DNA from: Actinomycetota bacterium
GTDB taxonomy: Bacteria; Actinomycetota; Acidimicrobiia; Acidimicrobiales; JACCXE01
Direction of reading: 5' to 3'
Length of the DNA: 64,000 nucleotides
Assembly (NCBI GenBank): GCA_048498715.1
Contig: JBEHXL010000009.1
Coordinates: forward strand, 68,017 to 132,016
Positions 2,246 through 31,528 of this stretch are shown here, one piece after another. Below the pieces are notes generated by a model that saw only the letters and a program-made list of their open reading frames with translations, was not told the DNA's origin and did no database searches. Made by a program: the position numbers and the translations under genes. The stretch's first letter is position 1; each line of letters begins with the position of its first letter.

Positions 2246-2283
2246 AGGGCTGTAAACCCTACTAGATCGGTCAACATTCCCCG

Positions 2284-2721: not shown

Positions 2722-2757
2722 GCGACGCACCATATGCCCGGTGTGCCGTGTTCGTCT

Positions 2758-4120: not shown

Positions 4121-4130
4121 GACGACGAGC

Positions 4131-6017: not shown

Positions 6018-6051
6018 GCCAGCGGAACGTACTCGCCTACCCTTCGCGGCC

Positions 6052-6642
6052 ATGTCACTCCTGGATCAACAAGTTCTTCTCGTCAATCAGAAGGCCAAGC
6101 TCATCGAGCTGACCAACGAGTACAAGGTTTCGGACGGCGACGGAAACGCGATTGGTTCCGTCATCGAAGTCGGCCAGAGCAAGGCCAAGAAGCTGCTCCG
6201 CTTCGTTTCGAACGTCGATCAGTTCCTGACCCACAAGCTCGAAGTGCGCAATGCCGACGAGTCGGTGGTGCTTCGCCTCACTCGCCCGGCCAAGCTCCTC
6301 AAGAGCACGGTCGTCGTCGAAGACGCCGCGGGCAAGGAGATCGGCAAGATCCGTCAGGAGAACGTGATCGGCAAGATCAACTTCTCCTTCGAAATCGGCG
6401 AGCGCAAAGTGGGTGCGATCCAGGCCGAGAACTGGCGGGCCTGGAACTTCGCCATCGTCGACGACAAGGGCACCGAGATCGCGCGCGTCACGAAGAAGTG
6501 GGAAGGCATCGTGAAGGCGGCCTTCACCACGGCCGACAACTACCTGGTGCAGATCCACAAGCCGCTCGAAGATCCGCTTCGCTCGCTGGTCGTCGCCGCA
6601 GCCCTCTGCATCGACACCGCCCTCAAGCAGGACGACAAGTAA
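6052..6642 (+). CDS. phospholipid scramblase family protein
   Basis: The C-terminal KKWEGIVKAAFTTADNYLVQI...AAALCIDTALKQ closely resembles the PLSCR signature (KHWTGILREAFTDADNFGIQF...GACFLIDFMF). Start at MSLLDQQ. Confidence 0.8.
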   Translation: MSLLDQQVLLVNQKAKLIELTNEYKVSDGDGNAIGSVIEVGQSKAKKLLRFVSNVDQFLTHKLEVRNADESVVLRLTRPAKLLKSTVVVEDAAGKEIGKIRQENVIGKINFSFEIGERKVGAIQAENWRAWNFAIVDDKGTEIARVTKKWEGIVKAAFTTADNYLVQIHKPLEDPLRSLVVAAALCIDTALKQDDK

Positions 6643-6647
6643 ACACC

Positions 6648-6684
6648 CTGGCACCCCGGCCACCCTCGGTGTCCGGGGTGCCAG
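6648..6684 (+). terminator. GC-rich hairpin after the scramblase gene
   Basis: ctggcaccccgg (6648-6659) pairs perfectly with ccggggtgccag (6673-6684). The loop has an inner cacc/ggtg pairing. No U-tract follows. Confidence 0.4.
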
Positions 6685-6748
6685 CCACACCTCGTAAACG
6701 CCTGCCAGCGTCCTAGGAACCACGCCTCCGTCGTCCTACGTTGCAGGC

Positions 6749-8143: not shown

Positions 8144-8197
8144 CTCGGCGCGAACGCGCCATGGAACCGCGCCGGAAACACAACGAGAGTCGAAGGC

Positions 8198-8803
8198 ATG
8201 ACCCTCGCACCTGCACCTTCCATTCCCGCGACCGGAACCATGCGCGTCACGCCGTGGCCCGATCCGATCATCGACTCACTCGGCCTCGACCCACGATCGC
8301 ACTACGTCGAGCGGTACTGGCTCGGCACGCTGGGGCCCTCGACGACGTGGCTGCTCCGTCGACTGGCCGCCGGTCTCGAACACGAACCGCAAGGGTTCGA
8401 CCTCGACCTGGCCGCGTGTGCTCGCGAACTCGGCCTGGGCGACAAGGGCGGACGGCACTCACCCTTCGCCCGGTCGTTGGCGCGCCTCGCGCAGTTCGAG
8501 ATTGCGCGGTGGCAGCCGTCGATCACCACACTCGAGGTTCGTCGGCGAGTGCCGCCGCTGAACCGGCGCCAGGTCATGTACCTGCCGGACGTGTTGCGAG
8601 CCCAGCATGACGACTGGCAGCGCGCCCAACTCGGTGGGGCAACCGCGGAAGTCGTGCGGCGACGATGCCACCAGCTGGCGTCGGTGCTGTTGCAGACCGG
8701 CGAGGAACGCGAAAGCGCCGAGCGGTTACTCCATCAATGGGGTTACCACCCGGCGCTTGCGTACGAGTCGGTGACCGCGGCCGCCGACGAGCTGGTCGGT
8801 TAG
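8198..8803 (+). CDS. hypothetical protein
   Basis: A 201-aa ORF with coding-like composition. No family recognised. Alternative start at ATG 8240. Confidence 0.5.
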   Translation: MTLAPAPSIPATGTMRVTPWPDPIIDSLGLDPRSHYVERYWLGTLGPSTTWLLRRLAAGLEHEPQGFDLDLAACARELGLGDKGGRHSPFARSLARLAQFEIARWQPSITTLEVRRRVPPLNRRQVMYLPDVLRAQHDDWQRAQLGGATAEVVRRRCHQLASVLLQTGEERESAERLLHQWGYHPALAYESVTAAADELVG

Positions 8804-10155
8804 CCGGCCGTCGTCGAAGTCACGGCCGGTGTCGTGGTCGACGTCACGGCCGGCGTCGTCGTCGACGTCACACCCGGTGTTGTCGTGGTCGTCGCCGGCT
8901 TGGCCGTCGTGGTCGTCGGCTTCACCGTGGTGGTCGTCTCACCCGAGCCCCCCGTGGGGTCGGGCAGGCAGCCGAGGCCGGGCAGTTCGACCGTGCCGCA
9001 CGCGGCGGCCGTCGTCGTCGTCTGCCCACGCGCCGTCGTCGTGGTCGGCTTCACCGTGGTCGTGGGCTTGATCGTGGTCGTTGCATTCGAACCGTCGATG
9101 CAGCCCGGCAGCGGCGTGGCGCAGGGAAGCTCGGAGGGCTCGAGACCGGCGACGCGGACGCCGCCGGTGAACTTGGCGTCGTAGGCGAAGAAGCTGGCGA
9201 CGTCGTCGTACTTGAACTTCTCGGCGTCGTACTGGACCACGCGCACGTGCGGGCCACCGCCCGGACCGGCGCCGATGACCATGCGGGCCTCGCCCGCGAT
9301 GCCGACGAACACGCCGCCGGTGAAGCTCGTCGAGTACGCGTAGAACTGGTAGAGCGCGTTGCCGTCGAGGTTGAACAGACGGACGTGGGGGCCACCGCCG
9401 GGGCCCGCTCCGGTGAGGACGTCGAGCTCGCCGGGAACCTGCGCGCTGCCGATGGCGACGCGAACGCCACCCGGGAACGAGCCGTAGGCCATCCACTCGG
9501 AGTACAGCTGCGGCACACCGCCGACGATCTTGAACACCTTGACGTGGGGGCCGCCGCCGGCGCCGGCGCCGGTCACGATGTAGCCGTTGGCGGCGCCGAC
9601 GAAGACGCCGCCCTTGAAGTCGCCGTAGGGCGAGAACGAGAAAACCTCTTCGAGTTGGTCGTTCACGAGGCGGTACGCCTTCACCGTCGAAGCCATGCCG
9701 GGGCCGGACCCCACAATGACTTCCTGACGGTCAGACGCGTCGACATTGCCAGCCGCCACCGTTGCGCCACCATTCGAGCCCGGGAACGGGACCGTCTCGG
9801 CGAGCACCGTGGCGTCCTTGCGCTGCACGGCAACCGTGGCGACCGATCCCGGCCCCGACGCCGTGATCAGTTCCTGCGGGCCGTCGCCGTCGATGTCGCC
9901 CGCCGCCACGTAGGCGCCGGAGCCGGCCGCGCCACGAGCGAAGAACTGCACGTCGCTCTGTGTGCCGTCCGGATTGAAGGTCTTGATGTGCGGACCGCCG
10001 CCGTCACCGGCACCGGTGAGGAACGCATCCGTGGGCGCAGCTTTCGCGCTCTGCTGGCTGATGACGCCAGACAACACCAGTGCAACTGCAGCAACCACGC
10101 CAGCCCCAGCCAGTGCGGTTCGCGACAAATTCGGTAAAACCCGTCGTAAACGCAT
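8800..10155 (-). CDS. secreted FG-GAP/VCBS-type beta-propeller repeat protein with a Thr/Pro-rich tail
   Basis: N-terminal signal sequence. Repeated blades carry G(A/S)GPGGGPH(V/I)(K/R) and DIDGDG motifs. The C-terminus has TTTVKPTTTT and TPAVTSTT repeats. Confidence 0.75.
   Translation of the reverse strand: MRLRRVLPNLSRTALAGAGVVAAVALVLSGVISQQSAKAAPTDAFLTGAGDGGGPHIKTFNPDGTQSDVQFFARGAAGSGAYVAAGDIDGDGPQELITASGPGSVATVAVQRKDATVLAETVPFPGSNGGATVAAGNVDASDRQEVIVGSGPGMASTVKAYRLVNDQLEEVFSFSPYGDFKGGVFVGAANGYIVTGAGAGGGPHVKVFKIVGGVPQLYSEWMAYGSFPGGVRVAIGSAQVPGELDVLTGAGPGGGPHVRLFNLDGNALYQFYAYSTSFTGGVFVGIAGEARMVIGAGPGGGPHVRVVQYDAEKFKYDDVASFFAYDAKFTGGVRVAGLEPSELPCATPLPGCIDGSNATTTIKPTTTVKPTTTTARGQTTTTAAACGTVELPGLGCLPDPTGGSGETTTTVKPTTTTAKPATTTTTPGVTSTTTPAVTSTTTPAVTSTTAG
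8813..8884. repeat. 3 x 24-nt imperfect tandem repeat inside the coding sequence
   Basis: The units are gtcgaagtcacggccggtgtcgtg, gtcgacgtcacggccggcgtcgtc and gtcgacgtcacacccggtgttgtc. On the minus strand they encode the T(P/G)(A/G)VTSTT repeats. Confidence 0.8.
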
Positions 10156-10181
10156 CGGCGCAGACTAGTTCGGAAGGCTAA

Positions 10182-10622
10182 TTAATTCGGGTTCGGCGCC
10201 AAGGCGAAGAACAGCCGCGCCTTGCAGGTGGCGGCACCGTCGACCGTCGATTGGGCGACGCCCCAGCCGCCTTTGGAGCTCAGCCGCTCCATGGTGACGT
10301 CGAGAACGAGCTCGTCGCCGGGCACGACCATCCGCCGGAACCGCACCTCTTCGACACCGCCGAACAACGGCAGCCGGCCGGCGAAGCGCTCGTCGGAAAG
10401 CACGGCGATCGCGCCGGTCTGGGCGAGCGCCTCGAGCTGGATAACGCCAGGAAACACGGGATTGCCGGGGAAATGTCCCGAGAGAAAGTCCTCGTCACCG
10501 GTGACCTTGTAACGGCCCACGCAGCGCTCCCCCACGACCAACTCGTCGACTGAATCGACGAAACGGAACGGTGGACGGTGCGGCAGCAGGCCGACGAGGT
10601 CAGCCGAGTTCGGAAGGGTCAC
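10182..10622 (-). CDS. fabZ: 3-hydroxyacyl-ACP dehydratase
   Basis: LLPHRPPFRFVD, HFPGNPVFPGVIQLEALAQ. The GTG start overlaps the merR stop (GTGA). Confidence 0.85.
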   Translation of the reverse strand: MTLPNSADLVGLLPHRPPFRFVDSVDELVVGERCVGRYKVTGDEDFLSGHFPGNPVFPGVIQLEALAQTGAIAVLSDERFAGRLPLFGGVEEVRFRRMVVPGDELVLDVTMERLSSKGGWGVAQSTVDGAATCKARLFFALAPNPN

Positions 10623-11374
10623 GCGGGGAAGCTTGCATCAATTGCCGCGAGGGCCTTGTGCAATGCCGCGCGTTCCTCGTCGGTGCCGACATTGACGAGT
10701 TCCTTCGCCATGGCCGCAACCAGCGTCCGTTCGACGTGGTAGCCCACCAGCCACGAGGCGGCCTGCACCATCATGGAAAACGCCTCGGAGAACTCTTCGG
10801 CCGCCTCGGGATGCGGTTCGCCGTTGAGCATCGGCTCCCGCACGTATTGCAGGAACAGCTTCGATGCACCGGCGGCGAGCAGCTCGGAGGTCTCGATCTG
10901 GAGCTTGGCGACGGCCATGAACTCCTCCATCGGCACTCCGGCGCTCACGAGGGCGAGCAGCATGCGCACGGCGCGAACGTCGGCCCGGCTGTACGGACGC
11001 TCCGGATCGTCGGCGGGCAGGGGCCGCAGAATCCCCGACCCCTCGAGTGAACGCAGCATCGACGGTGGCACGCGAGCGCGCTCGGCCAGTTCCGCCCGGG
11101 TGAGGCGCTCCTCGACCGCTTCGTCGTCGGATGGGTCAGCCCACGGCGAGTCCTGTCCCGCGGCCAGCACGTCGGCGACGGCTCGGAGGGAAAGACCCTT
11201 GGCTTTGAGGGCCTTGATCTTCAGCAATCTGTCGAGGTGTCCGGAGTCGTAGACAGCAGTGCGGCCCTCGTGGCGAGGCGCCGGCAGGAGACCCTTTGAC
11301 TGATACGAGCGCACCACTTCGACGGACAGGCCGGCGGCCTCCGCGAGGGTTCGAACATCGTAGGTCATCGCCAT
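10619..11374 (-). CDS. MerR-family regulator with two tandem MerR-type HTH modules
   Basis: Module 1 is YDVRTLAEAAGLSVEVVRSYQSKGLL...YDSGHLDRLLKIKALK. Module 2 is LTRAELAERARVPPSMLRSLEGSGIL...YSRADVRAVRML. Candidate starts are ATG 11374 or 11368, or GTG 11398. Confidence 0.75.
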   Translation of the reverse strand: MAMTYDVRTLAEAAGLSVEVVRSYQSKGLLPAPRHEGRTAVYDSGHLDRLLKIKALKAKGLSLRAVADVLAAGQDSPWADPSDDEAVEERLTRAELAERARVPPSMLRSLEGSGILRPLPADDPERPYSRADVRAVRMLLALVSAGVPMEEFMAVAKLQIETSELLAAGASKLFLQYVREPMLNGEPHPEAAEEFSEAFSMMVQAASWLVGYHVERTLVAAMAKELVNVGTDEERAALHKALAAIDASFPA

Positions 11375-11481
11375 CCAATCGTAATACGGCTGAATCACAA
11401 TGTTGAACCAAAGTGTGTAACCATTACGTCAGCAACGAAGTCAGAAGGCTTCGTACGGCGAGTTGAGAGGAGGTGACGCGC

Positions 11482-12348
11482 GTGGGCGTTGCAGTTGTTT
11501 TCCCAGGTCAGGGCAGTCAAGCGACAGGAATGGGCCTTGACTTGGTCGATCTCCCGGCGTGGCACCTCGTCACCGACGCCGAAGAAATTCTTGCGACCTC
11601 ACTCGCCCCGTTGCTCCTCGGCGACGAGCTGAAGACCACGCAGGCCGCCCAAACCGCCGTGCTGCTCCACTCCCTCGTCATGTGGGAAACGCTGCGGGAC
11701 GAGATCGGCGACGTCGCCTCGTTCGCCGGGCACTCACTCGGTCAGATGACCGCTTTGATCGCCTCCGGGTCGTTGAGCTTCGAGCAGGGCGTGCAGGTCG
11801 CCGCCAAGCGGGCCGCCGTCACCCAAGCTGCGGCCGACGACAAGCCCGGCGTCATGGCCGCGCTCATGGGCGCCACCGACGAGCAGGCAGCGGCCGCCGT
11901 CGAGGGCACGCCCGACACCTGCTGGGTTGCGAACATCAACGCTCCTGGCCAAATCGTCATTGCCGGGACACCCGAAGGACTCGCGCTCGCAACAGAAGCG
12001 GCGAAAGATGCGGGCATCCGCAAAGTCATCCCGCTCGACGTCGCCGCCGCGTTCCACACGCCGCTGATGGACGACGCTGCCATCGCCTTCGCCGAGTACC
12101 TCCAGTCGATCGAGTTCGCCGCTCCGTCGGCCCCGATCGTCTCGAACGAAGACGCAATCGCCTACACCGATGGCGACGGCTGGAAGACCCGCCTCGTCTC
12201 GCACCTCGTGCAGCCCGTCCGCTGGGCCGACTGCATGGTCACGATCGATTCCCTGTGCCCCTCGTCACTGCGCGAGGTGGGCCCGGGGTCCACGCTTACC
12301 GGACTTGCCAAACGATGCCTCCCGAACTCCGAATGGGTGACTGCCTAA
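11482..12348 (+). CDS. fabD: malonyl-CoA:ACP transacylase
   Basis: VFPGQGSQ and GHSLGQ motifs. GTG 11482 lies 8 nt after a GGAGG. An alternative GTG at 11473 abuts the SD. Confidence 0.9.
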   Translation: MGVAVVFPGQGSQATGMGLDLVDLPAWHLVTDAEEILATSLAPLLLGDELKTTQAAQTAVLLHSLVMWETLRDEIGDVASFAGHSLGQMTALIASGSLSFEQGVQVAAKRAAVTQAAADDKPGVMAALMGATDEQAAAAVEGTPDTCWVANINAPGQIVIAGTPEGLALATEAAKDAGIRKVIPLDVAAAFHTPLMDDAAIAFAEYLQSIEFAAPSAPIVSNEDAIAYTDGDGWKTRLVSHLVQPVRWADCMVTIDSLCPSSLREVGPGSTLTGLAKRCLPNSEWVTA

Positions 12349-12624
12349 ATGTCTCTTGCTGTTGAACTCGCCGAATACACCGAAGTTGCGGAGAAGCTGA
12401 TCCTGGCTCCCGCCCGGGGCGTCGTTCGTGTCCTCGATCCCAAGGTCGTCACCGACCAGGGTGAGATCGTCGAGGTCGGTCAGCCCATCGCCGTCATCGT
12501 GAATTCGGGTGACGAGATCGAGGCGTGCAGCCGCTTCAACGGCTTCCTCATGGAGATGCTGGTCACGACGGGCGAGCGGGTGCGCCCGGGTCAGCCCATC
12601 GCCTGGCTCCGTACCTTCAACTAG
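12349..12624 (+). CDS. biotinyl/lipoyl-domain-like small protein lacking the acceptor lysine
   Basis: The ATG immediately follows the fabD TAA. By eye it aligns to BCCP/1.3S domains (APARGVV, GQPIAVI, GERVRPGQPIAWL). Where E-A-M-K-M is expected it reads V-N-S-G-D. Confidence 0.6.
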   Translation: MSLAVELAEYTEVAEKLILAPARGVVRVLDPKVVTDQGEIVEVGQPIAVIVNSGDEIEACSRFNGFLMEMLVTTGERVRPGQPIAWLRTFN

Positions 12625-12634
12625 GCCTCAGCAC

Positions 12635-13564
12635 ATGAGTGCGATTGTTGGCATGGGGACGGGCCTGCCTGAAGGCCGTCTCACGAACGCGGATCTCGAG
12701 CGGACGCTCGACACGACCGACGAGTGGATCGTCGAGCGCACCGGGATCAAGGAGCGCCGCCTTGCCGCCGAAGGCGAAGACGCTGTCACGCTCGCGACCG
12801 AGGCCTGCCAGGGCGCTCTGAAGAGCGCCGGTGTCTCCACCGACGAGATCGACCTCCTGATCATCGCCACGATCACTCCCCCGCGCCGCCTGCCCGCTGC
12901 GTCGGCGTACGTGCAGGACAACCTGGGTCTGCAGTGCGGCGCTTTCGACCTCGTCGCCGCGTGTTCGGGCTTCGTCTACAGCTACGTGATGGCCGACGCC
13001 TACATCAAGGCGGGTCACGCCCGTTCCGTCCTGGTCTGCGGTGCCGAGACGATCAGCTCGATCGTCGACCCGACCGACCGCGGCACGAAGATCCTCTTCG
13101 GTGACGGCGCCGCGGCCGCGGTCGTCGTTCCGTCGGCCCCCGGCTACGGCATCCTCGGCTCCGACCTCGGTTGTGATGGCTCGGCCGCCGGCATTCTCGC
13201 CATCGAGCCCGGTGAGCAGTACGCCCACATGGACGGCAAAGAAGTGTTCCGTCGAGCCGTTCGCGCCTGCATCGCTTCGGCGGAGAACGCGCTGAAGCGC
13301 GCCGGGATCCACGCCAGCGAGATCGACTACTTCGTTCCGCACCAGGCCAACACCCGCATCATCGATGCGATCATCGAGCGCATCGGTTTGGACAACGCTC
13401 AGACGGTGCGAAACCTCGATGTGTACGGCAACACGTCGGCGGCCTCGATCCCGTTGGCGCTGACCGAAGTCGAACCGAAGGACGGCGACCTCGTACTGCT
13501 GTGCGGTTTCGGCGCTGGCATGACGTGGGCCAGCGCCGTTGTGCGCTGGGGCACCGGGCTCTGA
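12635..13564 (+). CDS. fabH: beta-ketoacyl-ACP synthase III
   Basis: Active-site contexts AACSGF, HQAN, GNTSAAS. ATG at 12635. Confidence 0.9.
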   Translation: MSAIVGMGTGLPEGRLTNADLERTLDTTDEWIVERTGIKERRLAAEGEDAVTLATEACQGALKSAGVSTDEIDLLIIATITPPRRLPAASAYVQDNLGLQCGAFDLVAACSGFVYSYVMADAYIKAGHARSVLVCGAETISSIVDPTDRGTKILFGDGAAAAVVVPSAPGYGILGSDLGCDGSAAGILAIEPGEQYAHMDGKEVFRRAVRACIASAENALKRAGIHASEIDYFVPHQANTRIIDAIIERIGLDNAQTVRNLDVYGNTSAASIPLALTEVEPKDGDLVLLCGFGAGMTWASAVVRWGTGL

Positions 13565-14325: not shown

Positions 14326-14568
14326 ATGTCCCGTGACGAAGTCCTCGCCGTGATGCGTGATGCCGCCGTCGAACTGCTCAAGATCGACCCGGCCAAGGTC
14401 ACCGAAGAGGCCACCTTCGCCGAAGACCTCGAGGCCGACAGCCTCGACGTCGTTGAGCTCGTGATGGCGCTCGAAGAGAAGCTCGACGTCTCGATCCCGG
14501 AGGAAGAGCTCGAAGGCATCAAGACCGTGGGCGAGGCGCTCGACGTCATCGCCGCCAAGGTCGCGTAG
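14326..14568 (+). CDS. acpP: acyl carrier protein
   Basis: An 80-aa acidic protein with [12 protein letters not shown] (DSL phosphopantetheine site). SD aaggaga upstream. Confidence 0.95.
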
Positions 14569-14583
14569 GACCCCGGAGTAGCT

Positions 14584-15819
14584 ATGGCCGACCGTCGACG
14601 CGTTGTCGTGACCGGCATGGGCGTGAAGACGCCCGCCGGCAACACCATCGAATCGTTTTGGGAAACGCTGCTGGCCGCGGCTGGAACGGCCGCGGGCCCG
14701 ATCGAGCGCGTCGACGTGTCGGACTGGCCCGTCGGCTTCGCCTGCGAAGTCAAGGGCTTCAACCCTGAGGACTACATCGAGGCCAAGGAGGTGCGCCGCG
14801 CCGACCGCGTCGCGCAGCTCGGCTACGCCGCCGCCGTCGACGCCTTAAAGCAGGCCGGCGATCTCGGACTCGATCCCGCTCGGATCGGCGTCGTCGCCGG
14901 TACGGGTGTCGGTGGTCTCGAGACGCAGGAGCGTGAGGAGATCGTCGTCTACCAGAAGGGCAAGACCCGCGTGTCGCCCTTCCTCGTGCCGATGATGATG
15001 ACCAACGCGACCGCCGCGATGATCTCGATGGGCCACGGCCTGCGAGGTCCGAATCTCTGCATCGCAACCGCCTGCGCGGCGGGCACGCACGCGATCGGTG
15101 AGGCGGCACACATGATCCGCTACGGCGCGGCCGACGCGATCGTCGCGGGTGGATCCGAAGCGGCGATCACGCCGGTCGGCATGGCTGCGTTTGCTCGCAT
15201 GGGTGCGCTGTCGACGCGCCGCGACGATCCAGCGGGAGCGTCGCGGCCGTTCGACGCCAGCCGCGACGGGTTCGTCATGGGTGAGGCGGGTGCCTTCGTC
15301 GTGCTCGAGGAGTACGAGCACGCCGTTGCCCGCGGGGCGACGATTCTCGGCGAGATCCTCGGCTACGGCCGCAACGCCGACGCCCATCACATCACGGCGC
15401 CCCGGCCTGACGGCGGCGGCATGATCGGCGGGATGGAAGCCGCGATCGCCGACGCCGGCCTCACGCCCGCCGACATCGGCAGCATCAACGCGCACGGCAC
15501 GTCGACGCCGCTCAACGACTCGGCGGAGTCGCAGGCGATCTACAAGGTGTTCAACGGCGAGGCGCCTCCCGTCGTGTCGACCAAGGGTGTCACCGGCCAC
15601 TGCATCGGCGCCGCCGGCGCGGTCGAGTGCATCGCCGGTCTATTGACCGCGAACACCGGATTGGTGCCGCCGACCGCGAACCACACCGAAAAAGGTGAGG
15701 GCATCGAAGTCGACGTCGTGTCGGGTTCGCCGCGTGAGGTTGGCCAGAAGCCGGTGTTGTCGAACTCGTTCGGCTTCGGCGGTCACAACGGCACGCTTGT
15801 CGTCGGCCCCACCCGCTAA
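14584..15819 (+). CDS. fabF: beta-ketoacyl-ACP synthase I/II (KasA/FabF type)
   Basis: VVVTGMG, IATACAAG (Cys), HGTSTP, GHCIGAAG, FGFGGHN. Confidence 0.92.
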   Translation: MADRRRVVVTGMGVKTPAGNTIESFWETLLAAAGTAAGPIERVDVSDWPVGFACEVKGFNPEDYIEAKEVRRADRVAQLGYAAAVDALKQAGDLGLDPARIGVVAGTGVGGLETQEREEIVVYQKGKTRVSPFLVPMMMTNATAAMISMGHGLRGPNLCIATACAAGTHAIGEAAHMIRYGAADAIVAGGSEAAITPVGMAAFARMGALSTRRDDPAGASRPFDASRDGFVMGEAGAFVVLEEYEHAVARGATILGEILGYGRNADAHHITAPRPDGGGMIGGMEAAIADAGLTPADIGSINAHGTSTPLNDSAESQAIYKVFNGEAPPVVSTKGVTGHCIGAAGAVECIAGLLTANTGLVPPTANHTEKGEGIEVDVVSGSPREVGQKPVLSNSFGFGGHNGTLVVGPTR

Positions 15820-15825
15820 ATCGCT

Positions 15826-17190
15826 TTGACCAACCTGCTCGCGCTCGGCACGGCGCGCCTCGGCGGCGCCCAGGCGGAGATTCGCGAGTTGGGCGGCCAG
15901 AAGGTCGGCTACTTCCGTCTCGCGGACGAGCCTGACGACGGCGACGACGCCGTCGGTCGTGGATCAATCGGACCCGACGAAGCGGAGTCCGTCGCACGAC
16001 TGATCCGCCTCGCGACCGATACCGGCATGCCGATCGTGGGCGTGCTCGCGGTCTCGGGCACCGACGTACGCCACGGCGTTGCGTCACTGGTCGCGTGGGG
16101 GCGTATCGCGTCGGCGCTGGTCGACGCATCGGGCATCGTGCCGATCACCATGGCCGTCATCGGTCCGTGCGCGGCTGGTCCCTCGCTGCTCGTCGGCATT
16201 GCCGACGCCGTGGTCTTCACGTCGGACTCGACGGCGTTCGTGTCGGGCCCCGCGGCGGTGAGCGGCATGACGGGCGAGACGATCTCGCCTCTGGATCTGG
16301 GCGGCCCGAACGTGCATGCCGTCGAGAGCGGCATCGCGGCGATGGTGGCCGACGACGAAGACAGCGCCATCGACGCGATCTCGCTGATCCTCGCTCACCT
16401 GCCCGCGAACAATCACGAGCTCGCACCGTGGGCTCTCCATCACGACGAACTCGATCGTGACTGCGAAGCGAAGGTCCCCGATTCGCCGAACGCGGGCTAC
16501 GACGTTCGCAAGGTCATCGACGAAGTGTGCGACCGCGGCTCGTGGTTCGAGCTGTGGGCGCGTCATGCGGCCAACTCCGTCGTCGGCTTCGCGCGCGTGG
16601 ACGGCTATCCGGTTGGCGTCATCGCGAACCAGCCCGGTTGGCTGGCGGGCACGCTCGACATCGAGGCGTCGACCAAGGCGGCACGCTTCGTACAGCTGTG
16701 CGACGCGTTCAACGTGCCGCTGCTCACCTTCGTCGACACGCCCGGTTTCCAGCCGGGGAAAGACCTCGAATGGCGCGGCATGATCCGCCACGGAGCCAAG
16801 CTCGTGTTCGCCTACGCGCAGGCCACCGTGCCGCGCGTGTGCGTCATCCTCCGCAAGGCCTACGGCGGCGCCTACATCGTCATGGACTCGCGGGGCATGG
16901 GCAGCGACTTCGTCGTGTCGTGGCCGCAAGCCGAGATCGCGGTGATGGGAGCCGGCGGCGCCATCGGTCTTTTGTACGGACGACGCGATCTACCTGCGGA
17001 AGAGATGCAGCGCCTCACCGAGGAATACCAGGCCGACTACTGCACGCCGCGCGTCGCATCGGAGCGCGGGTACGTCGACATGGTGATCGAGCCGAAACAG
17101 ACGCGACGCGTCGTGGTCGGCGCGTTCGAAGCACTGCGTTCAAAGCGTGAGCACCTGCCCAAGCGTCGCCACGCCAACCCGCCCCAGTAG
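15826..17190 (+). CDS. accD6: acyl-CoA carboxylase carboxyltransferase (beta) subunit, AccD6-like
   Basis: Two-lobed carboxyltransferase similarity (GPCAAGPS..., FVDTPGFQPG, RKAYGGAY). TTG start. It occupies the same operon position as mycobacterial accD6. Confidence 0.8.
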   Translation: MTNLLALGTARLGGAQAEIRELGGQKVGYFRLADEPDDGDDAVGRGSIGPDEAESVARLIRLATDTGMPIVGVLAVSGTDVRHGVASLVAWGRIASALVDASGIVPITMAVIGPCAAGPSLLVGIADAVVFTSDSTAFVSGPAAVSGMTGETISPLDLGGPNVHAVESGIAAMVADDEDSAIDAISLILAHLPANNHELAPWALHHDELDRDCEAKVPDSPNAGYDVRKVIDEVCDRGSWFELWARHAANSVVGFARVDGYPVGVIANQPGWLAGTLDIEASTKAARFVQLCDAFNVPLLTFVDTPGFQPGKDLEWRGMIRHGAKLVFAYAQATVPRVCVILRKAYGGAYIVMDSRGMGSDFVVSWPQAEIAVMGAGGAIGLLYGRRDLPAEEMQRLTEEYQADYCTPRVASERGYVDMVIEPKQTRRVVVGAFEALRSKREHLPKRRHANPPQ

Positions 17191-17201
17191 AAAGTCTCTC
17201 C

Positions 17202-17975
17202 ATGCTCCTCGAAGGCAAGAAGATCGTCGTCACTGGTGTCGCGGCGGAAAGCTCGATCGCGTTCACCGTCGCCCGCCTCGCTCAGGAACAAGGCGCCGAG
17301 ATCGTGCTCACGTCGTTCGGCCGCATCATGTCGCTCACCCAGCGCGTCGCGAAGCGTCTCCCGTCGACGCCCGACGTGCTCGAGCTTGACGTGACCGATC
17401 CGTCGCACGCTCCTGCGCTCGCGGCCGAGCTCGACAAACGGTGGGGTCGTGTCGACGGCGTCGTGCATTCGCTCGCCAATGCGAACCCCGAGACTTGCCT
17501 TGGCGGCGACGTGTTCCGTGCGCCGTTCGAGGACGTTGCGATGGCCGTGCACGTCTCCGCGTTCTCGCTCAAGGAACTCGCCTCTGCGTTCCTGCCGCTC
17601 ATGCAGAAGGCGGGCGGCGGTTCCGTCGTCGGCCTCGACTTCGACGCCACCAAGGCGTTCCCCATGTACAACTGGATGGGCGTCACCAAGGCCGCGCTGG
17701 AGTCCCTCAATCGCTACCTCGCGCGTGACCTCGGCCCGTCGAAGGTGCGTTGCAACCTCGTCGCCGCTGGCCCGCTGCGTACACTGTCAGCCAAGTCGAT
17801 CCCCGGCTTCGATCAGTTCGAAGACATCTGGTCCGAGCGCGCGCCGCTGGGTTGGGATCTCAAGGACCCCGAGCCCGCAGCCCGCGCCGTCATCGCCCTG
17901 TTGAGCGACTGGTTCCCCGCCACGACAGGCGAAATCGTCCACGTCGACGGCGGCTTCCACGCCGTAGGCGCCTAA
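17202..17975 (+). CDS. fabI: NADH-dependent enoyl-ACP reductase (InhA/FabI)
   Basis: GKKIVVTGV...SIAF, YNWMGVTKAALES (Tyr/Lys), VHVDGGFH. Confidence 0.9.
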   Translation: MLLEGKKIVVTGVAAESSIAFTVARLAQEQGAEIVLTSFGRIMSLTQRVAKRLPSTPDVLELDVTDPSHAPALAAELDKRWGRVDGVVHSLANANPETCLGGDVFRAPFEDVAMAVHVSAFSLKELASAFLPLMQKAGGGSVVGLDFDATKAFPMYNWMGVTKAALESLNRYLARDLGPSKVRCNLVAAGPLRTLSAKSIPGFDQFEDIWSERAPLGWDLKDPEPAARAVIALLSDWFPATTGEIVHVDGGFHAVGA

Positions 17976-21707: not shown

Positions 21708-22403
21708 ATGGCGACGAACCGATACGAACGCATCGCAACTGACGGCGGCGAGTTCGAGGCGTATTGCGCCCTCCCTGACGGTGATCAGGGACCGGGCGTG
21801 TTGGTCTTCCAGGAGATCTTCGGGATCAACGACAACATCCGCGAATTGTGCGATCGGCTTGCAGGTGCCGGATACGTCGCCATGGCACCCGACATGTTCT
21901 GGCGCATCGAGCCGCGCTTCGAACGCAAAGACGAATCCGGGATGGCGGACGCATTCGCGATCGTCCAAAAGTTCGACGCGGAAAAGGGCGTCACCGACAT
22001 TCAGGCCGCGAGCGCGCACTTGCGCGGCTTGAGTGAGTGCACCGGCAAGGTCGGCGCTGTCGGGTTCTGCCTCGGTGGCGGTCTCGCCTACGCCGCAGCC
22101 GCGTTCGCGGGTGTCGACGCTGCGGTCTCGTATTACGGCTCAGCGGTGAACAGCATGCTCGGCGACGCCGACAAGATCACCGTGCCGATCATGTTCCACT
22201 ACGGCGACAACGATCCGTTCATCCCCGGCGAGAACATCGACGAGGTCGAGAAGGTGTTCGCCGGCCGTTCCAACGTCGAGTTCTTTCGGTACGACGCGGG
22301 CCACGCGTTCAGCAACGCCGACGCCCCTTCGATGTACAACGCCGACGCCGCGTCGCTGGCGTGGCAGCGCACGCTGGACTTCTTCGCCGCGAACCTGGCT
22401 TAA
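21708..22403 (+). CDS. dienelactone hydrolase family protein
   Basis: VLVFQEIFG, GFCLGG nucleophile elbow, terminal GHAF. ATG at 21708. Confidence 0.85.
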   Translation: MATNRYERIATDGGEFEAYCALPDGDQGPGVLVFQEIFGINDNIRELCDRLAGAGYVAMAPDMFWRIEPRFERKDESGMADAFAIVQKFDAEKGVTDIQAASAHLRGLSECTGKVGAVGFCLGGGLAYAAAAFAGVDAAVSYYGSAVNSMLGDADKITVPIMFHYGDNDPFIPGENIDEVEKVFAGRSNVEFFRYDAGHAFSNADAPSMYNADAASLAWQRTLDFFAANLA

Positions 22404-22651
22404 GTCGCCTCTTCGATCAGGCCGCGCTCGTCGAGCAGAGCCAAGCCCTTCTCGACGTGGGGCAGCGGCATCTCGAGTGAGCTTGCGAGCCCCTCTGCGT
22501 TGAGGATCCCGTCGAGCGTCGCCAGCAACGGAACCAACACTTCGCCGGCCGCCCGCCCCTGAAACAACACGGGCGCGCCGCCGTTGACCACTGCGATCCC
22601 GTCCGGCAAGGGCACGACCTCAAGGCCTTCCTTGAGGCGAGGAACGTTCAT
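22400..22651 (-). CDS. stand-alone RRE/PqqD-like winged-helix peptide-binding protein (83 aa)
   Basis: The pattern P.L..G......DG......G.....L.G.A...L..LL..LDG......L...L.......V...L..L...GLI matches the N-terminal leader-binding domain of TOMM cyclodehydratase C proteins. Its ATG overlaps the upstream stop (ATGA). Confidence 0.6.
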   Translation of the reverse strand: MNVPRLKEGLEVVPLPDGIAVVNGGAPVLFQGRAAGEVLVPLLATLDGILNAEGLASSLEMPLPHVEKGLALLDERGLIEEAT

Positions 22652-23196
22652 TCGCCGACTTCCTTGCCGCAGGAGCAGCCGTGCATCCGAACGACGCGTC
22701 CCTCGATGACGGTTTCGTCAGCCGAGTGGCGACGGACGGTTCCGAGCAGGCGGCGCGGCACAGCCTCGACACCGGGCACGGTGACGGCGGTGCGGAGCGC
22801 GCCGATTTCATTCGCTGCGATCTTCACCAATTCGCGCAGTTGCGCGGTGGGTGGGGGCACGACGGCACGGAGCCAGTGGTTGTGGATCGCGTCGTGCACG
22901 GCAAGATCGGTCGCGTGCTGGCGCTCGCGTGCCTCGAAGCACTCGAAGCACGGACCACCGGGCGCGACCACCGGGCCAACCTGGAGACGGCCGTGATACC
23001 CCCACACCGGCACGAAGGGCTGCCGGGTGTTGTTGAGATCACGGGCGACCGTCAGCGCAGGCCGGGAAGCGACCACCACGACAAGCGCGTCGGCACCCAT
23101 TGGGTCCGATGGCCCCTCGTGTTGCACCCCGCGATCACGCAACACGTTGCGCACATCGCGGCCGTACATGCCGACGCCGACGACGAGCAGTCTCAC
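22648..23196 (-). CDS. E1/ThiF-like cyclodehydratase partner domain protein (182 aa)
   Basis: Rossmann-like MRLLVVGVGMYG. VGPVVAPGGPCFECFEAR resembles the GP..pG..gC..C..R motif of the SagC/ocin-ThiF type. C-terminal CSCG. The GTG start overlaps the YcaO stop (GTGA). Confidence 0.65.
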   Translation of the reverse strand: MRLLVVGVGMYGRDVRNVLRDRGVQHEGPSDPMGADALVVVVASRPALTVARDLNNTRQPFVPVWGYHGRLQVGPVVAPGGPCFECFEARERQHATDLAVHDAIHNHWLRAVVPPPTAQLRELVKIAANEIGALRTAVTVPGVEAVPRRLLGTVRRHSADETVIEGRVVRMHGCSCGKEVGE

Positions 23197-24161
23197 GGAG
23201 CGACCCTTTCGAGACGGGCATGCTCCGTCCAGCCGGGGGTCGGCGGTATCGGGCTGAGGCCGGGGACCACGACGCGCACCGCCGCCATGCCGATCGCGCG
23301 CAACTCGTCGCAGGTGAGGTCGACGGCGTACCCCGCGAGACCCAGCGTTCGCAGCCGGGCGACCAACGCCGGCTTGGAAACGTCGATCGCCGGTGTGGTG
23401 CTCGGCGACAGCGGCTCTCCTTCGGCGATCAGGTCGAAGGCCGGGTCGGCTGCGGGCTCTTCCGGGTACGCGTCGAAGGCGCGGCGGGTGCGGCGGCGAG
23501 CCAGTTCGAAGACCGCGGCGTCCTGCGCGTCGGACATTGCGGTCCCGGCCGCGACACCCACCTCAAACGAGGCCGCCCCCTGCGCGATCGCCACAGGCAC
23601 GCCGAGGTCGGATGTCGCGTCGAAGACCGCGACCTCTCCTTCAGCGGTCGCGATGTAGGGCAGCGGCGTGTTGCGTGTGCGGGCGACGGCGAGGGAATCA
23701 CGCGCGGCGCAGTCGAGAAACCCGCCGACGACGGCCGACCCCAGATCATCGGCCACGCAGATTCCGGCGAGCGACGCAGGCCAGAACGACTCAGCCTCGA
23801 CCGCGACCGGCAGTCCGACGTAGACCAGCATCGCTGGGATCCACACCGGCCGTCCATCGTCGAGGGCAAACCCTTCGACCCACCGGATGCGGTCGCGTGT
23901 CTCGAGGGAGGCCACGCGCGCGAGCTCTTCGACGGGGATCGCGTCGTCACCGAGTTCGTCGGCGCTCGCCCATCGCATCATCGGCGCATCCCAGCCGGCG
24001 GCGGCATACAGACCGACCGCGTTGCGCAATGCGTCGTTCGACGCGTCAGCTTCCGTTGGTCCAGCACCGATGCCGACAAGGGGCGGACAATGCTCCGGAT
24101 GTCGACCGTGACCCGCGGACGCGACACACACGAACGGACCCGCGTCGTCCTGCACGCGCAC
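23193..24161 (-). CDS. YcaO-domain protein, short, with a divergent ATP/Mg-binding motif
   Basis: GAGPTEADA..DALRNAVGLY aligns with GKGLTxxxAxxSAxxEAxERY. Other matches: VWIPAMLVY, DATSDLGVPVAIA, and the C-terminal AVRVVVPGLSPI. The first canonical start is GTG 24161, and similarity continues upstream (see findings). Confidence 0.8.
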   Translation of the reverse strand: MRVQDDAGPFVCVASAGHGRHPEHCPPLVGIGAGPTEADASNDALRNAVGLYAAAGWDAPMMRWASADELGDDAIPVEELARVASLETRDRIRWVEGFALDDGRPVWIPAMLVYVGLPVAVEAESFWPASLAGICVADDLGSAVVGGFLDCAARDSLAVARTRNTPLPYIATAEGEVAVFDATSDLGVPVAIAQGAASFEVGVAAGTAMSDAQDAAVFELARRRTRRAFDAYPEEPAADPAFDLIAEGEPLSPSTTPAIDVSKPALVARLRTLGLAGYAVDLTCDELRAIGMAAVRVVVPGLSPIPPTPGWTEHARLERVAP

Positions 24162-24254
24162 GTGCGAGACGAGGCCGCCGATCGGACTGACAAGGGACGT
24201 GAGACCAGATGCGATGCGCGGAACCTAGCCCGCATTGTGGGTAGAACGGCCTCC

Positions 24255-25229
24255 ATGAGTCGGGGCGCCCAGGTGTGGTTGGCTGTGGGCCTCGCGCTGT
24301 GCGCGCTCACTGCATGCGCTCCACGCGATCTCCGAGCTGTCGCCAACCCCGTCGCGCTGCGGATCAACGCCGCGGACGTACGCGGAATCCTGACGCTGCC
24401 GGTGACACCCGAGCCCGTGCCCGCCGTCGTGTTGTTGGCGGGCTACAGCTCCAGTGACATGGACGAGACCGTCGGCAAGACGAAGCCTTTTCGCGACATT
24501 GCGGAAGGGCTCGCGACGCGCGGCATTGCGACGCTTCGATTCGACAAGCCGATCCTGCATCGTGTGCCACCGCCGAACTTCACGCCGACGGAGGAGTACG
24601 TCGACTCCACTCGAGCGGCCGTGGCCTATCTACGCACGCGGTCCGAGGTCGACCAGACCCGCGTCTTCGTCCTCGGGCACAGCTTCGGGGGCACGATGGC
24701 ACCCAAAGCAGTCGTCGGACTGAACGTCGCCGGGCTGATTCTGTTGGCGCCGCCGGTGCGGCCGATCGCCGAGGTCCTTGCGTCGCAGTTCACGTACTTG
24801 CGCAGCCTCGGCGGCACGATCGGTTACGACGCCTCCCTCGCGACGCAGGACGCGCAGCAGTTCCTCGCCGCCGCCAGCAGTTCATCGCTGCGGCCCGATA
24901 CCGCCCTCAAGTCCGAACTCGCCTACGGCTACCACGGCGCGTACTTCCTCGATCTGCGCTCGTACGATCCGGTGCGGACCGCGGCGAACCTGCACGTCCG
25001 GATCCTCCTCTTGCAAGGCCGCCGTGACTACATGGTCACGATGAAGCAGGACCTCGATGTCTGGGTGGCCGGTCTGCGCGACACCGACCTCGAGGTGCGC
25101 ACCTACCCCGACGCAAACCACGCGCTGATCAACGGGACGGGCCGCCCGTCACCCGAGGACTTCGACCATCCGGGCCACGTGGCGGACCGCGCCATCGCGG
25201 ACATGGCCGACTGGGTCGAGCGCCGCTAA
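24255..25229 (+). CDS. alpha/beta-hydrolase lipoprotein
   Basis: Lipobox LTAC. Nucleophile elbow GHSFGG. ATG at 24255; the upstream part of the 709-aa ORF is antisense shadow. Confidence 0.8.
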   Translation: MSRGAQVWLAVGLALCALTACAPRDLRAVANPVALRINAADVRGILTLPVTPEPVPAVVLLAGYSSSDMDETVGKTKPFRDIAEGLATRGIATLRFDKPILHRVPPPNFTPTEEYVDSTRAAVAYLRTRSEVDQTRVFVLGHSFGGTMAPKAVVGLNVAGLILLAPPVRPIAEVLASQFTYLRSLGGTIGYDASLATQDAQQFLAAASSSSLRPDTALKSELAYGYHGAYFLDLRSYDPVRTAANLHVRILLLQGRRDYMVTMKQDLDVWVAGLRDTDLEVRTYPDANHALINGTGRPSPEDFDHPGHVADRAIADMADWVERR

Positions 25230-29299: not shown

Positions 29300-30502
29300 T
29301 TACAGGTCGCGGGCCAGGCGCACGCCGCTGAAGGCCCACCGGCAGTGCGGGCCGAAGAAGTTGCGGTACGTCGGGCGGGCGTGGCCTTTCGGCGTGGCGC
29401 AGCACGAGCCCTTCAGGACCTGCTGGTTGATCATGAACTTGCCGTTGTATTCACCGACGGCGCCCGCCGCTGGCGCGAAGCCCGGATACGGCGAATACGC
29501 CGATGCCGTCCACTGCCACACCGAGCCGTACCACTCGTCGTCGACGGGATGCAGCCGCTTGAGGTCCAGACCCGAGCGGGCGGGCACCTTCTTCGGTGCG
29601 GCGATCTCCCACTCCGACTCGGTAGGTAGGCGCGCGCCGGACCAGCGAGCGAACGCATCGGCCTCGTACCAACTCACGTGGACGACTGGCTCATCGTCAC
29701 GTACGGCGAGGGGGCCTCCCATCGTGAAGGTCATCCATTCGTCGCCCTCGCGCCACCAGTACAGCGGCGAATCCCATCCGTCGGCCTTGACCCGCGCCCA
29801 TCCGTCGCTCATCCAGAACTCGGGCCGCTCATAGCCGCCGTCGTCCATGAAGGCGAGCCACTCGCCGCACGAGACCAGCGACTCCGAAATCTCGAACGGC
29901 TGCAGGAACGTCTCGTGGCGCGGTGATTCGTTGTCGAAGAAGAACTCGTCGCCGGCGTAACCCACCTCGGCGACGCCGCCGTCGTGCTGGGTCCAGATGC
30001 CGACCTTCGGCCGGTCGATCGGCTGGTCCCACCAGCGAGCCTTGCCGTAATGCGGCTGAGTCGGGTTCATCGCGAGGACGTGCTTGATGTCCATCACGAT
30101 GAGTTCTTGGTGCTGTTGCTCGTGGTGGAGGCCGAGGGTGACGAGCTCGGGTGCGAGCCCGCGCTCGAGCAAGACGTGCATGTTCTCGTCGACGTAGTGG
30201 CGGTAGTCCCCGATTTCCTTCGCTCCCGGGCGGGTAAGCAGACCGCGCTCGTTGCGCGCGTGGCGCGGCCCGATGCCCTCGTAGTACGAGTTGAAGAGGA
30301 ATCGGTAGTTCGGGTCCCACGAGCGGTAACCCTTCAAGGAAGGCTCGAGGAGGAACGTCTCGAAGAACCAGGTGGTGTGCGCCCGGTGCCACTTGGTGGG
30401 TGACACATCCGCCATCGACTGGACGGTCTGGTCTTCGGCCGACAACGGCTCAGCCAACGCCTCTGTCAGCCTGCGCACTGCGTCGTAGTCGAGTGGTTTC
30501 AC
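29300..30502 (-). CDS. egtB: hercynine oxygenase / sulfoxide synthase
   Basis: DinB-like N-terminus (SPTKWHRAHTTWFFE, LFNSYY) plus an FGE-sulfatase-like C-terminus. The GTG start overlaps the egtD stop (GTGA). Confidence 0.88.
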   Translation of the reverse strand: MKPLDYDAVRRLTEALAEPLSAEDQTVQSMADVSPTKWHRAHTTWFFETFLLEPSLKGYRSWDPNYRFLFNSYYEGIGPRHARNERGLLTRPGAKEIGDYRHYVDENMHVLLERGLAPELVTLGLHHEQQHQELIVMDIKHVLAMNPTQPHYGKARWWDQPIDRPKVGIWTQHDGGVAEVGYAGDEFFFDNESPRHETFLQPFEISESLVSCGEWLAFMDDGGYERPEFWMSDGWARVKADGWDSPLYWWREGDEWMTFTMGGPLAVRDDEPVVHVSWYEADAFARWSGARLPTESEWEIAAPKKVPARSGLDLKRLHPVDDEWYGSVWQWTASAYSPYPGFAPAAGAVGEYNGKFMINQQVLKGSCCATPKGHARPTYRNFFGPHCRWAFSGVRLARDL

Positions 30503-31458
30503 AAATGCACCCCGGCGAGAGTCAACAGGAAGTCTCCTGCCTCGTCCGTCCACTGATCCAGCACCTTCAGTCCGGCCGCGGCGAGTTCACGATTGACGCC
30601 CGCCGGAGTGAATTTGGCGCTGATCTCGGTGCGGATCGATTCGCCCTCCGCGAATTCGATGTCGATGCCGAGCGCCTCGAGGTGGACGTGCTGCGCAGTC
30701 AGCGACACCAAGCGCATCTCGATCCAGTTCTCGTCTTCGTTGTACAGCGCAACGTGACGGAACATCTCGACGTCGAAGTCGGCACCGAACTCCCGGTTCA
30801 GCCGCGTCAACACGTTCAGGTCGAACGCCGCGGTGACGCCCTGGGCATCGTCGTAGGCGGCGACCAGACGGTGACGGTCCTTCTGCAGGTCGGTGCCGAG
30901 CAGGAAGGTGTCGCCGTCCTTCATGCCGGATCGGATCGTGTTGATCATCTCCGCCCGTGCCATCGGCGCGAAGTTGCCGATCGTGGAGCCGAGCAGGGCG
31001 ATCATCTGCTTGCCCGTCTTGGGGAGATGGACGAGGTCGGAGTTGAAGTCGCCGACGATGCCGTGCACGTCGAGCCCGGGGTACTCGGCCACGAGTGCCT
31101 CGCCGGCCTCGCGCAGGGTCGATTCGGCCACGTCGAAGGGCACGTACGTCGCGGGCATCGACATCACGTCCAACAGGAAGCGCGTCTTCTCCGAGTTACC
31201 CGATCCGAGCTCGACGAGGGTGTCGGGTTCGGCCATGGCCACGATTTCCTTGCCCCGCTCCCGCAGGATCGAGCGCTCTGCCTTGAAGGGGTAGTACTCG
31301 TCGAGTTTGGTGATCTCGTCGTAGATCTCACAGCCGCGCTCGTCGTAGAACCACACGGGCGACAGCACCTTGTGCGTCGCCGTGAGGCCTTCGATGAGTT
31401 CTTCTCTGAGCGCGACAGAAGCCGCGTCTTCGTCGAGGAATACCTCAACCCGCATCAT
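30499..31458 (-). CDS. egtD: L-histidine N-alpha-methyltransferase
   Basis: WFYDERGCEIYDEITKLDEYYPFKAE, LVELGSGNSEKTRFLLD. Start at ATG 31458 or 31455. Confidence 0.9.
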   Translation of the reverse strand: MMRVEVFLDEDAASVALREELIEGLTATHKVLSPVWFYDERGCEIYDEITKLDEYYPFKAERSILRERGKEIVAMAEPDTLVELGSGNSEKTRFLLDVMSMPATYVPFDVAESTLREAGEALVAEYPGLDVHGIVGDFNSDLVHLPKTGKQMIALLGSTIGNFAPMARAEMINTIRSGMKDGDTFLLGTDLQKDRHRLVAAYDDAQGVTAAFDLNVLTRLNREFGADFDVEMFRHVALYNEDENWIEMRLVSLTAQHVHLEALGIDIEFAEGESIRTEISAKFTPAGVNRELAAAGLKVLDQWTDEAGDFLLTLAGVHL

Positions 31459-31528
31459 GAGCAGCGTAGGCAAGGGGTGTGACATCGGGAAGCAGTACCC
31501 CCGAAATCACGCCGCGTTACAGAAAAGG

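Follow-up and report, generated by a model that had tools for sequence, protein, structure and literature searches.

The RiPP recognition element (RRE) is the handle by which the enzymes that mature peptides made by ribosomes and modified after translation (RiPPs) find their substrates. Systems for pyrroloquinoline quinone (PQQ) and lasso peptides have discrete RREs, but in azole- and azoline-forming (YcaO) systems the element normally shares a chain with an E1-like or Ocin-ThiF-like body. We know of no discrete RRE of a YcaO/E1-like pair; a literature search for one found none. We analyzed such a case in a 64,000-nucleotide stretch of an Acidimicrobiales genome (Actinomycetota bacterium, assembly GCA_048498715.1, contig JBEHXL010000009.1, positions 68,017 to 132,016; the whole stretch is called the window hereafter), in which the minus strand carries three genes in tandem, in the order YcaO, 182-amino-acid (aa) E1-like protein and 83-aa RRE. 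It seems fairly probable that this triad is the reduced descendant of an actinobacterial azole synthetase composed of YcaO, an RRE-less E1-like protein (C′) and an RRE–E1–SagB fusion, and that it has retained a non-canonical but selected function. Discrete and trans-acting RREs are already known; what appears to be new is the free 83-aa RRE beside a YcaO/E1-like pair, derived from a truncated fusion of C protein and dehydrogenase (CB fusion).

The McbBCD/BalhCD-type synthetases, in which C combines an RRE with an E1-like domain, D is the YcaO protein and B a dehydrogenase, likewise place a YcaO protein beside an E1-like partner. Domain 2 of McbB matches the fold of the 182-aa protein (query-normalized TM-score, TMq, 0.70) and has the same CxxC and CxC motifs, and domain 1 of McbB matches the RRE fold. 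In the window, however, the RRE forms an 83-aa chain of its own, whose gene comes after that of the E1-like protein, and the dehydrogenase, a linked precursor, the YcaO glutamates that bind Mg/ATP, a conserved active-site Thr and the C-terminal proline tail are missing. The CzlD/CzlBC-type systems (curacozole, YM-216391), which we liken to the triad from their description, combine a discrete YcaO with a fusion of an RRE/E1-like part and a flavin mononucleotide (FMN)-dependent dehydrogenase, and the N-terminal region of CzlBC has been proposed to recruit the precursor to the discrete YcaO CzlD (PMC11575548), an experimental precedent for such a fusion serving a separate YcaO. Similarly, the 83-aa protein has its closest homologues in the N-terminal parts of RRE–E1-like–SagB fusions whose genes lie downstream of one for a discrete YcaO, but in the window the fusion appears reduced to its RRE, and the relatives of the window have an extra RRE-less E1-like gene between YcaO and the fusion. 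The F-protein-dependent cyclodehydratases (HcaF/HcaD; TbtF/TclI, TIGR03693) follow the same principle of recognition in trans: a separate RRE-bearing protein recognizes the leader, and the E1-like and YcaO parts are without a working RRE (PMC7470986). The likeness extends to structure, the best match of the 83-aa model being the RRE of PbtF, but the window has the RRE alone, without a ThiF-like body and without a match to TIGR03693. PqqD and the lasso B1 proteins (TbiB1) resemble the 83-aa protein in having fewer than 100 residues and a structurally similar β3-α3 fold, and in being encoded beside their enzyme partners; however, the partner enzymes in the window belong to another class, and the 83-aa protein does not match the Pfam PqqD model.

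The 83-aa protein (ATG start; 22400–22651, minus strand) was modelled by AlphaFold2 (AF2) with a mean predicted local distance difference test score (pLDDT) of 86.4 as a PqqD-like winged helix in the order β1-β2-β3-α1-α2-α3, with strands at residues 11–15, 18–22 and 28–31 and helices at 33–45, 52–59 and 63–75, i.e., with the three strands and three helices of an RRE. Its top matches in the PDB, obtained with Foldseek, are all RREs: PbtF (TM-score 0.77), LynD, TbiB1, MccB, ThcOx, McbB and lasso B1. At the level of sequence, Pfam PqqD (PF05402) gave no match at E ≤ 1, and marginal matches were seen to Rrf2 and ArsR-type winged helix-turn-helix (wHTH) models and PDB chains (E 0.05–0.5); the family profile, when compared with PDB sequences, retrieved just weak wHTH regulators and a designer pentatricopeptide repeat (PPR) artefact. 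The family profile of the 182-aa protein retrieved no PDB sequence at all, and because such searches were weak or empty for both small proteins, fold comparison was required. The weak wHTH matches are what might suggest that the 83-aa protein is a small transcription factor regulating the operon, but β3 is followed by α3 as in RREs and not arranged in the order α-β-α-α-β-β, every top structural match is an RRE, the homologues are N-terminal domains of E1-like/dehydrogenase enzymes, and the protein is strongly acidic (pI 4.4, net charge −7; family median pI 4.7), which argues against a DNA-binding role, so that we give this explanation almost no credence. The open reading frame (ORF) has a coding-type composition (GC content at codon positions 1/2/3 of 0.76/0.40/0.83). 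Its most conserved segment, PVLFQGRAA (22547–22573, minus strand), comprises strand β3 and the start of α1 and consists of invariant or near-invariant columns in our RRE alignment (A2); by analogy with RREs that bind peptide between α3 and β3 (PMC7470986), this region is expected to form the peptide-binding edge. We also considered the 83-aa protein as the remnant of an Ocin-ThiF-like F protein and rejected this, as TIGR03693 does not appear among the NCBIfam matches of either small protein or of the fusions related to them, and the relatives are fusions of TIGR03882 and SagB domains.

The 182-aa protein (GTG start, beginning MRLLVVGVG; 22648–23196, minus strand) is equivalent to domain 2 of McbB or LynD. 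It falls below the cutoffs of both relevant NCBIfam models, TIGR03882 (E 7e-7, 29.6 bits against 36.9) and SagC TIGR03603 (E 1e-4, 21.7 bits against 187.65), but two orthologues, the C′ of locus L013 and protein P0102, pass TIGR03882 with 52.1 and 39.0 bits, respectively. The AF2 model (pLDDT 92.4) has the E1/ThiF/MoeB-like fold, with the E1-like domains of LynD and TruD as the best Foldseek matches (E 3e-9), followed by McbB (TMq 0.70) and then MccB, MoeB and ThiF. It opens on a Rossmann-type strand (residues 2–7) and has no β3-α3 module, and thus no RRE of its own. Four cysteines, Cys83 and Cys86 in a CxxC motif (22939–22950, minus strand) and Cys174 and Cys176 in a CxC motif (22669–22677, minus strand), are invariant in 39 homologues (alignment A3). 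McbB holds Zn by the same CxxC and CxC pattern (Cys192/195/290/292; PMC6395948), and the four cysteines of the 182-aa protein are predicted to form the two halves of an equivalent structural Zn(Cys)4 site. The first-pass annotation, which was made from the sequence of the window, had located and described both small ORFs exactly, and its assignment of a YcaO, an E1-like protein lacking an RRE and a separate RRE is borne out by Pfam, AF2 and Foldseek.

When 1.84 billion representative proteins were scored with a profile built from the 83-aa family, 110 relatives were retrieved. The stand-alone RRE constitutes one 50% cluster, and nearly all other relatives are 480–600 aa long and carry the RRE at the N-terminus; a SagB dehydrogenase domain was found in 42 and a TIGR03882 E1-like domain in 40 of the 60 RRE-bearing relatives scanned. 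In Streptomyces (L013), Nocardioides (L014) and two metagenomic contigs (L017 and L018), YcaO is followed by an RRE-less E1-like gene and then by an RRE–E1-like–SagB gene (~550 aa). The window RRE is 41% identical to the N-terminus of the L018 fusion over 78 aa (E 3e-13). The 182-aa protein is ~39–41% identical to the C′ proteins encoded by the middle genes (~39% to P0056 of L018) and 29% identical to the E1-like domain of the fusion, which lies downstream of the RRE (L018, residues 143–302); because it is nearer to the former, we regard it as the orthologue of a pre-existing RRE-less C′. Likewise, since the fusion is the third gene in all of these loci, the gene order of the triad would have been inherited. 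Most simply, the 83-aa RRE would then be a truncated second, downstream C-type gene which lost its E1-like and dehydrogenase parts.

One further relative joins the two small proteins in a single chain. On a metagenomic contig (L016, 590–1321), a complete ORF located after a YcaO gene with a canonical tail (…AWPQPFA) and before a convergent PMSR gene encodes P0055, a protein of 243 aa that consists of an RRE-less E1-like domain followed by a C-terminal RRE, the reverse of the domain order in a canonical C protein. Judging from its sequence, P0055 would serve as a Rosetta stone that links both small proteins functionally. The first-pass annotation took the 83-aa protein for a separately encoded recognition element, and this view is a reasonable one. 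The same annotation had called the arrangement a split and permuted C protein that implies a three-subunit complex, which we took to mean a single C protein cut and reordered to give an active three-subunit cyclodehydratase (D, E1-like and RRE). The domain content of the triad indeed equals one C protein plus one D protein, the order is conserved, and P0055 indicates that both pieces can work as one chain. The synteny series, however, disfavours this origin, with relatives holding an RRE-less C′ and a full RRE–E1–SagB gene at the same positions; these fusions supply, with their N-termini, the closest homologues of the RRE, the YcaO is without its catalytic residues (see below) and no precursor is linked. 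We therefore consider a split of one C protein improbable, and replace it with an RRE-less C′ plus a truncated CB protein. Related loci display a natural reduction series, from RRE–E1–dehydrogenase fusion through E1–RRE fusion to free RRE, and the window itself shows that an RRE of 83 residues can be maintained as a free protein where the E1-like partner of a YcaO has none. The series is useful for the engineering of minimal leader-recognition modules and, because both small proteins are annotated as 'hypothetical', for tuning the rules of genome mining.

The YcaO protein (23193–24161, minus strand; 322 aa when counted from its first canonical start codon, a GTG) is a full-length member of its family, matching Pfam PF02624 over profile positions 2–325 of 325 (E 7e-26, 91.7 bits against a cutoff of 25.7), and a profile of its family recovers MusD, LynD and TruD at E ~1e-28. 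Its active-site motifs are degenerate. At the position of motif 1, canonically ExxE(R)Y, the window protein reads RNAVGLY (24006–24026, minus strand), with both Mg/ATP glutamates replaced; the active-site turn S-T-G-x-A-x-H is SLAGICVA (23751–23774, minus strand), in which Thr has become Ala; and motif 2, canonically (F/L)ExxERD, is FLDCAARD (23697–23720, minus strand). The C-terminus, HARLERVAP (23196–23222, minus strand), ends ~25 residues short of the canonical …NPxPxPFA tail. A segment near the C-terminus, PIPPTPGW, was considered as a PxPxP motif and rejected, because the alignment places it internally and the true tail is missing. The same picture was obtained from the HMMER alignment to MusD, from a MAFFT alignment with canonical relatives and from a profile alignment with LynD, TruD and MusD, and it holds for the whole clade to which the window belongs: all eight YcaOs show (N/R/D)xx(G/A/L)LY, L-A-G and (D/E)xxARD, with the second glutamate of motif 2 replaced by Ala in 8/8, and all end in …HARLxRVA, so that the clade as a whole has lost three of its four conserved glutamates, along with the Thr and the PxPxP tail. 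By comparison, the canonical motif residues are found in L003, L013, L014 and L017, and canonical tails in L003 (NPLPVPFA), L016 (AWPQPFA) and L017 (NPWPQPFA). In McbD, changing one Mg-coordinating Glu, the Thr equivalent to the one lost here (Thr148) or a C-terminal Pro severely impairs heterocyclization (PMC6395948). Canonical ATP-dependent cyclodehydratase activity in the window lineage is thus doubtful, and with it an active three-subunit cyclodehydratase on the lines of the first-pass annotation, for which a linked precursor and a dehydrogenase are missing as well. The conserved YcaO, apparently stripped of its catalytic residues and without a precursor, would be a more surprising element than the free RRE.

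The N-terminus of this YcaO is also unusual. An in-frame extension of the translation (…SLVSPIGGLVSHV; 24162–24224, minus strand) contains the same motif as the homologues in L002, L004, L007 and L008 and is preceded by a TAG stop codon at 24225–24227, with no ATG, GTG or TTG between that stop and the GTG at 24161; the sole candidate start within the extension is an ATC at 24213–24215. The public annotation of an identical sequence gives a YcaO of 262 aa and a divergent hydrolase of 379 aa that overlaps the region of the extension. The hydrolase more plausibly starts at the ATG at 24255 (MSRGAQVWLAVGLALCALTAC, lipoprotein-like), leaving a gap of ~30–40 bp to YcaO.

The triad is well conserved. 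Each small protein has ~45–55 homologues of 60–90% identity, nearly all of them 80–90 aa (RRE) or 172–192 aa (E1-like) in length; those labelled with a taxon belong to metagenome-assembled genomes of Acidimicrobiales or Actinomycetota, and the named members of both exact clusters are annotated as 'hypothetical protein'. A search seeded with the A3 profile added just P0102 and P0103 to the E1-like homologues. The order YcaO, E1-like, RRE, whose unusual nature had been pointed out in the first reading of the window, was kept in every related locus recovered (L001–L004 and L005–L012, including 8/8 GTDB species loci), and these loci have a syntenic housekeeping neighbourhood in common. Pairwise ratios of nonsynonymous to synonymous substitution rates (dN/dS, ω) were 0.10–0.22 for the E1-like protein, 0.22–0.28 for YcaO and 0.08–0.41 for the RRE, in the same range as in the flanking CoA-transferase, M17 peptidase and adenosyltransferase (0.16–0.29). 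Conserved order, conserved lengths and low dN/dS together indicate that the triad genes are real and under selection. They also contradict the idea that the triad is left over from a RiPP cluster in decay and now has no function: the loss of catalytic residues, dehydrogenase and precursor and the YcaO N-terminus without a canonical start codon in this genome would fit a relic, but three intact ORFs in at least eight species and ~50 metagenomic variants, with ω of 0.1–0.3 at dS ~1, equal to that of flanking housekeeping genes, make it very improbable.

The search for a substrate was negative near the triad. Among the small ORFs of the 64-kb window, none combined a coding signature with a Cys/Ser/Thr-rich composition, and a survey of conserved small ORFs within 3 kb upstream and 1.5 kb downstream of the triad in eight loci recovered only the RRE itself. 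A dehydrogenase is not obligatory for azoline products; none of the SagB-type FMN family was found among the neighbours of the triad. Only one triad locus, L003, which is syntenic with the window but more distant (C′ 42% identical), has a candidate precursor. Its YcaO possesses all canonical residues and is accompanied by the same stand-alone RRE, and immediately upstream of YcaO there is a 56-aa ORF (5462–5632; MREPLELDDDFELYAEALPEEADLKCLIPQCIIAPPQCVIFCYPPETPPLPQCVIA) with an acidic, leader-like N-terminus and a core in which five Cys occur within repeats of PQC(I/V)I. Next to it comes an M50/HExxH intramembrane protease (5661–6698; daptide_HExxH, E 1e-24) with a PqqD-like N-terminus (E 1e-3); no other locus carries this ORF and an M50-type protease beside the triad. 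Peptide, protease and triad may together form an uncharacterized thiazoline RiPP cluster, and the 56-aa peptide could represent the ancestral substrate of the triad. However, a hairpin separates the 56-aa ORF from YcaO, a metagenome scan with the L003 peptide retrieved no homologue, and L019 (1519–3412), the closest relative of L003, in which the triad is divergent from metH and ~90 bp away from it, has no precursor or protease beside the triad; a connection of the L003 precursor with its triad is therefore a lead and not proven. Neither the L003 peptide nor a precursor-like peptide of L013 (see below) matched the window or the loci by tblastn. The YcaO of L019 is itself intermediate, with KAIERY and EVVEHD at the motif positions and no PxPxP tail, which suggests, as far as these sequences go, a stepwise loss of catalytic motifs inside the stand-alone-RRE clade. 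The L003 YcaO requires a frame change near 7790 (~7786–7800) to reach the conserved C-terminus, and metH (1913–5248) is in fragments in the same locus; both are probably indel errors of a long-read assembly and not signs of pseudogenes.

These relatives bear directly on the question of whether the window triad might still be an active amide-activating enzyme, with a remodelled nucleotide/metal site and an unlinked precursor peptide or protein. The housekeeping-level constraint on the three genes and the highly conserved β3/α3 edge of the RRE would agree with this, as would L003 with its canonical YcaO, stand-alone RRE, Cys-rich 56-aa ORF and RRE-bearing M50 protease, and YcaOs that act on unlinked protein substrates do exist, e.g., the E. 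coli YcaO on uL16 (PMC13063428). On the other hand, the window clade is missing three of the four glutamates as well as the Thr and the PxPxP tail, and single changes of this kind cripple McbD; the YcaO of L019 is already partly degenerate and is not accompanied by a precursor or protease, and the L003 peptide has no homologue in the metagenome scans. We regard such an enzyme as unlikely, if still a serious candidate.

Returning to the reduction of an azole synthetase, which we prefer, the ancestral arrangement would have been a discrete YcaO, an RRE-less C′ and a canonical C protein (RRE plus E1-like) fused to a SagB dehydrogenase, and in the Acidimicrobiales lineage the third gene would have been reduced to its RRE, which is located downstream because it had always been there and not through the cutting or permuting of a C protein. 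The acidic RRE might take up a peptide as an extra strand on its conserved β3/α3 edge and dock in trans on the Zn-stabilized E1-like protein, which in turn could partner YcaO in the manner of McbB2–McbD or LynD; such a complex would make thiazolines in ancestors of the L003 type. In the window, where catalytic residues and tail are lost and neither a dehydrogenase nor a precursor gene is linked, the complex is probably no canonical ATP-dependent cyclodehydratase, and the housekeeping-level constraint on all three genes implies that a selected function was kept. Most likely, this function is the binding of a peptide or protein, with remodelled catalysis as the alternative. More specifically, and only tentatively, the triad could be a domesticated RiPP maturase, in which a YcaO pseudoenzyme, an E1-like scaffold and a free RRE perform non-biosynthetic binding, sensing or sequestering under housekeeping-level selection. 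If confirmed, it would be a rare example of a RiPP maturase turned pseudoenzyme, and a warning that not every YcaO/E1-like pair should be scored as a biosynthetic cluster.

Several points weigh against this interpretation. Motif 2 still has Asp/Glu at its first position and retains the R-D of ExxERD, a clade-specific EAE motif could, to judge by the alignment, substitute for the lost glutamates, and the strong purifying selection on the YcaO fold may suit an enzyme more easily than a scaffold. A precursor could be encoded elsewhere in the genome, beyond the 64 kb. Truncation, as opposed to a later fusion, is argued from parsimony, with one narrow stand-alone clade set against ~100 diverse fused clusters, and P0055 is the sole E1-like–RRE fusion, from one metagenomic contig.

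In the operon, neighbouring genes share 4 bp, and a purine run resembling a Shine-Dalgarno (SD) sequence lies upstream of both junctions: the stop codon of YcaO and the start codon of the E1-like gene overlap as GTGA (23193–23196, minus strand; GAAAGGG upstream), and those of the E1-like and RRE genes as ATGA (22648–22651, minus strand; AAGGAAG 10 nt upstream). These overlaps and SD-like runs indicate translational coupling of the triad. A promoter/terminator scan of 22200–24500 detected nothing above shuffled sequences. The operon is bordered by genes unrelated to the triad, on its 3′ side by a convergent dienelactone hydrolase (DLH) and a family III CoA-transferase, and on its 5′ side by the divergent secreted α/β hydrolase mentioned above and metH; DLH hydrolases, an adenosyltransferase and an M17 peptidase are further neighbours.

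Other gene groups were noted in the relatives and in the window. The Streptomyces locus (L013, Streptomyces sp. NPDC003036) appears to be a complete RiPP cluster (6246–12925), which comprises a SARP regulator, two YcaO genes (6995–8305, minus strand, and ~8680–9965, plus strand), a 46-aa precursor-like ORF (8461–8601; MDATGTNPELDLDLDDYEDVGTEGLDPMCGVSNSSYNGCSSGESCR), the RRE-less E1-like gene, the RRE–E1-like–SagB fusion, a nitroreductase-family protein and an ABC transporter. In the window, genes for an acyl carrier protein (ACP, 80 aa), a ketosynthase, a carboxyltransferase-like protein and a short-chain dehydrogenase lie in a row on the plus strand (14326–17975). Equivalents of this ACP/ketosynthase row flank the triad in L002–L004 as part of a conserved neighbourhood, and a functional link to the triad is not evident. 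On the minus strand (29300–31485), a few kb from the triad and past metH and a TrmO-like gene, two adjoining genes with FGE-sulfatase (EgtB-like) and Methyltransf_33 (EgtD-like) domains constitute an ergothioneine-type pair.

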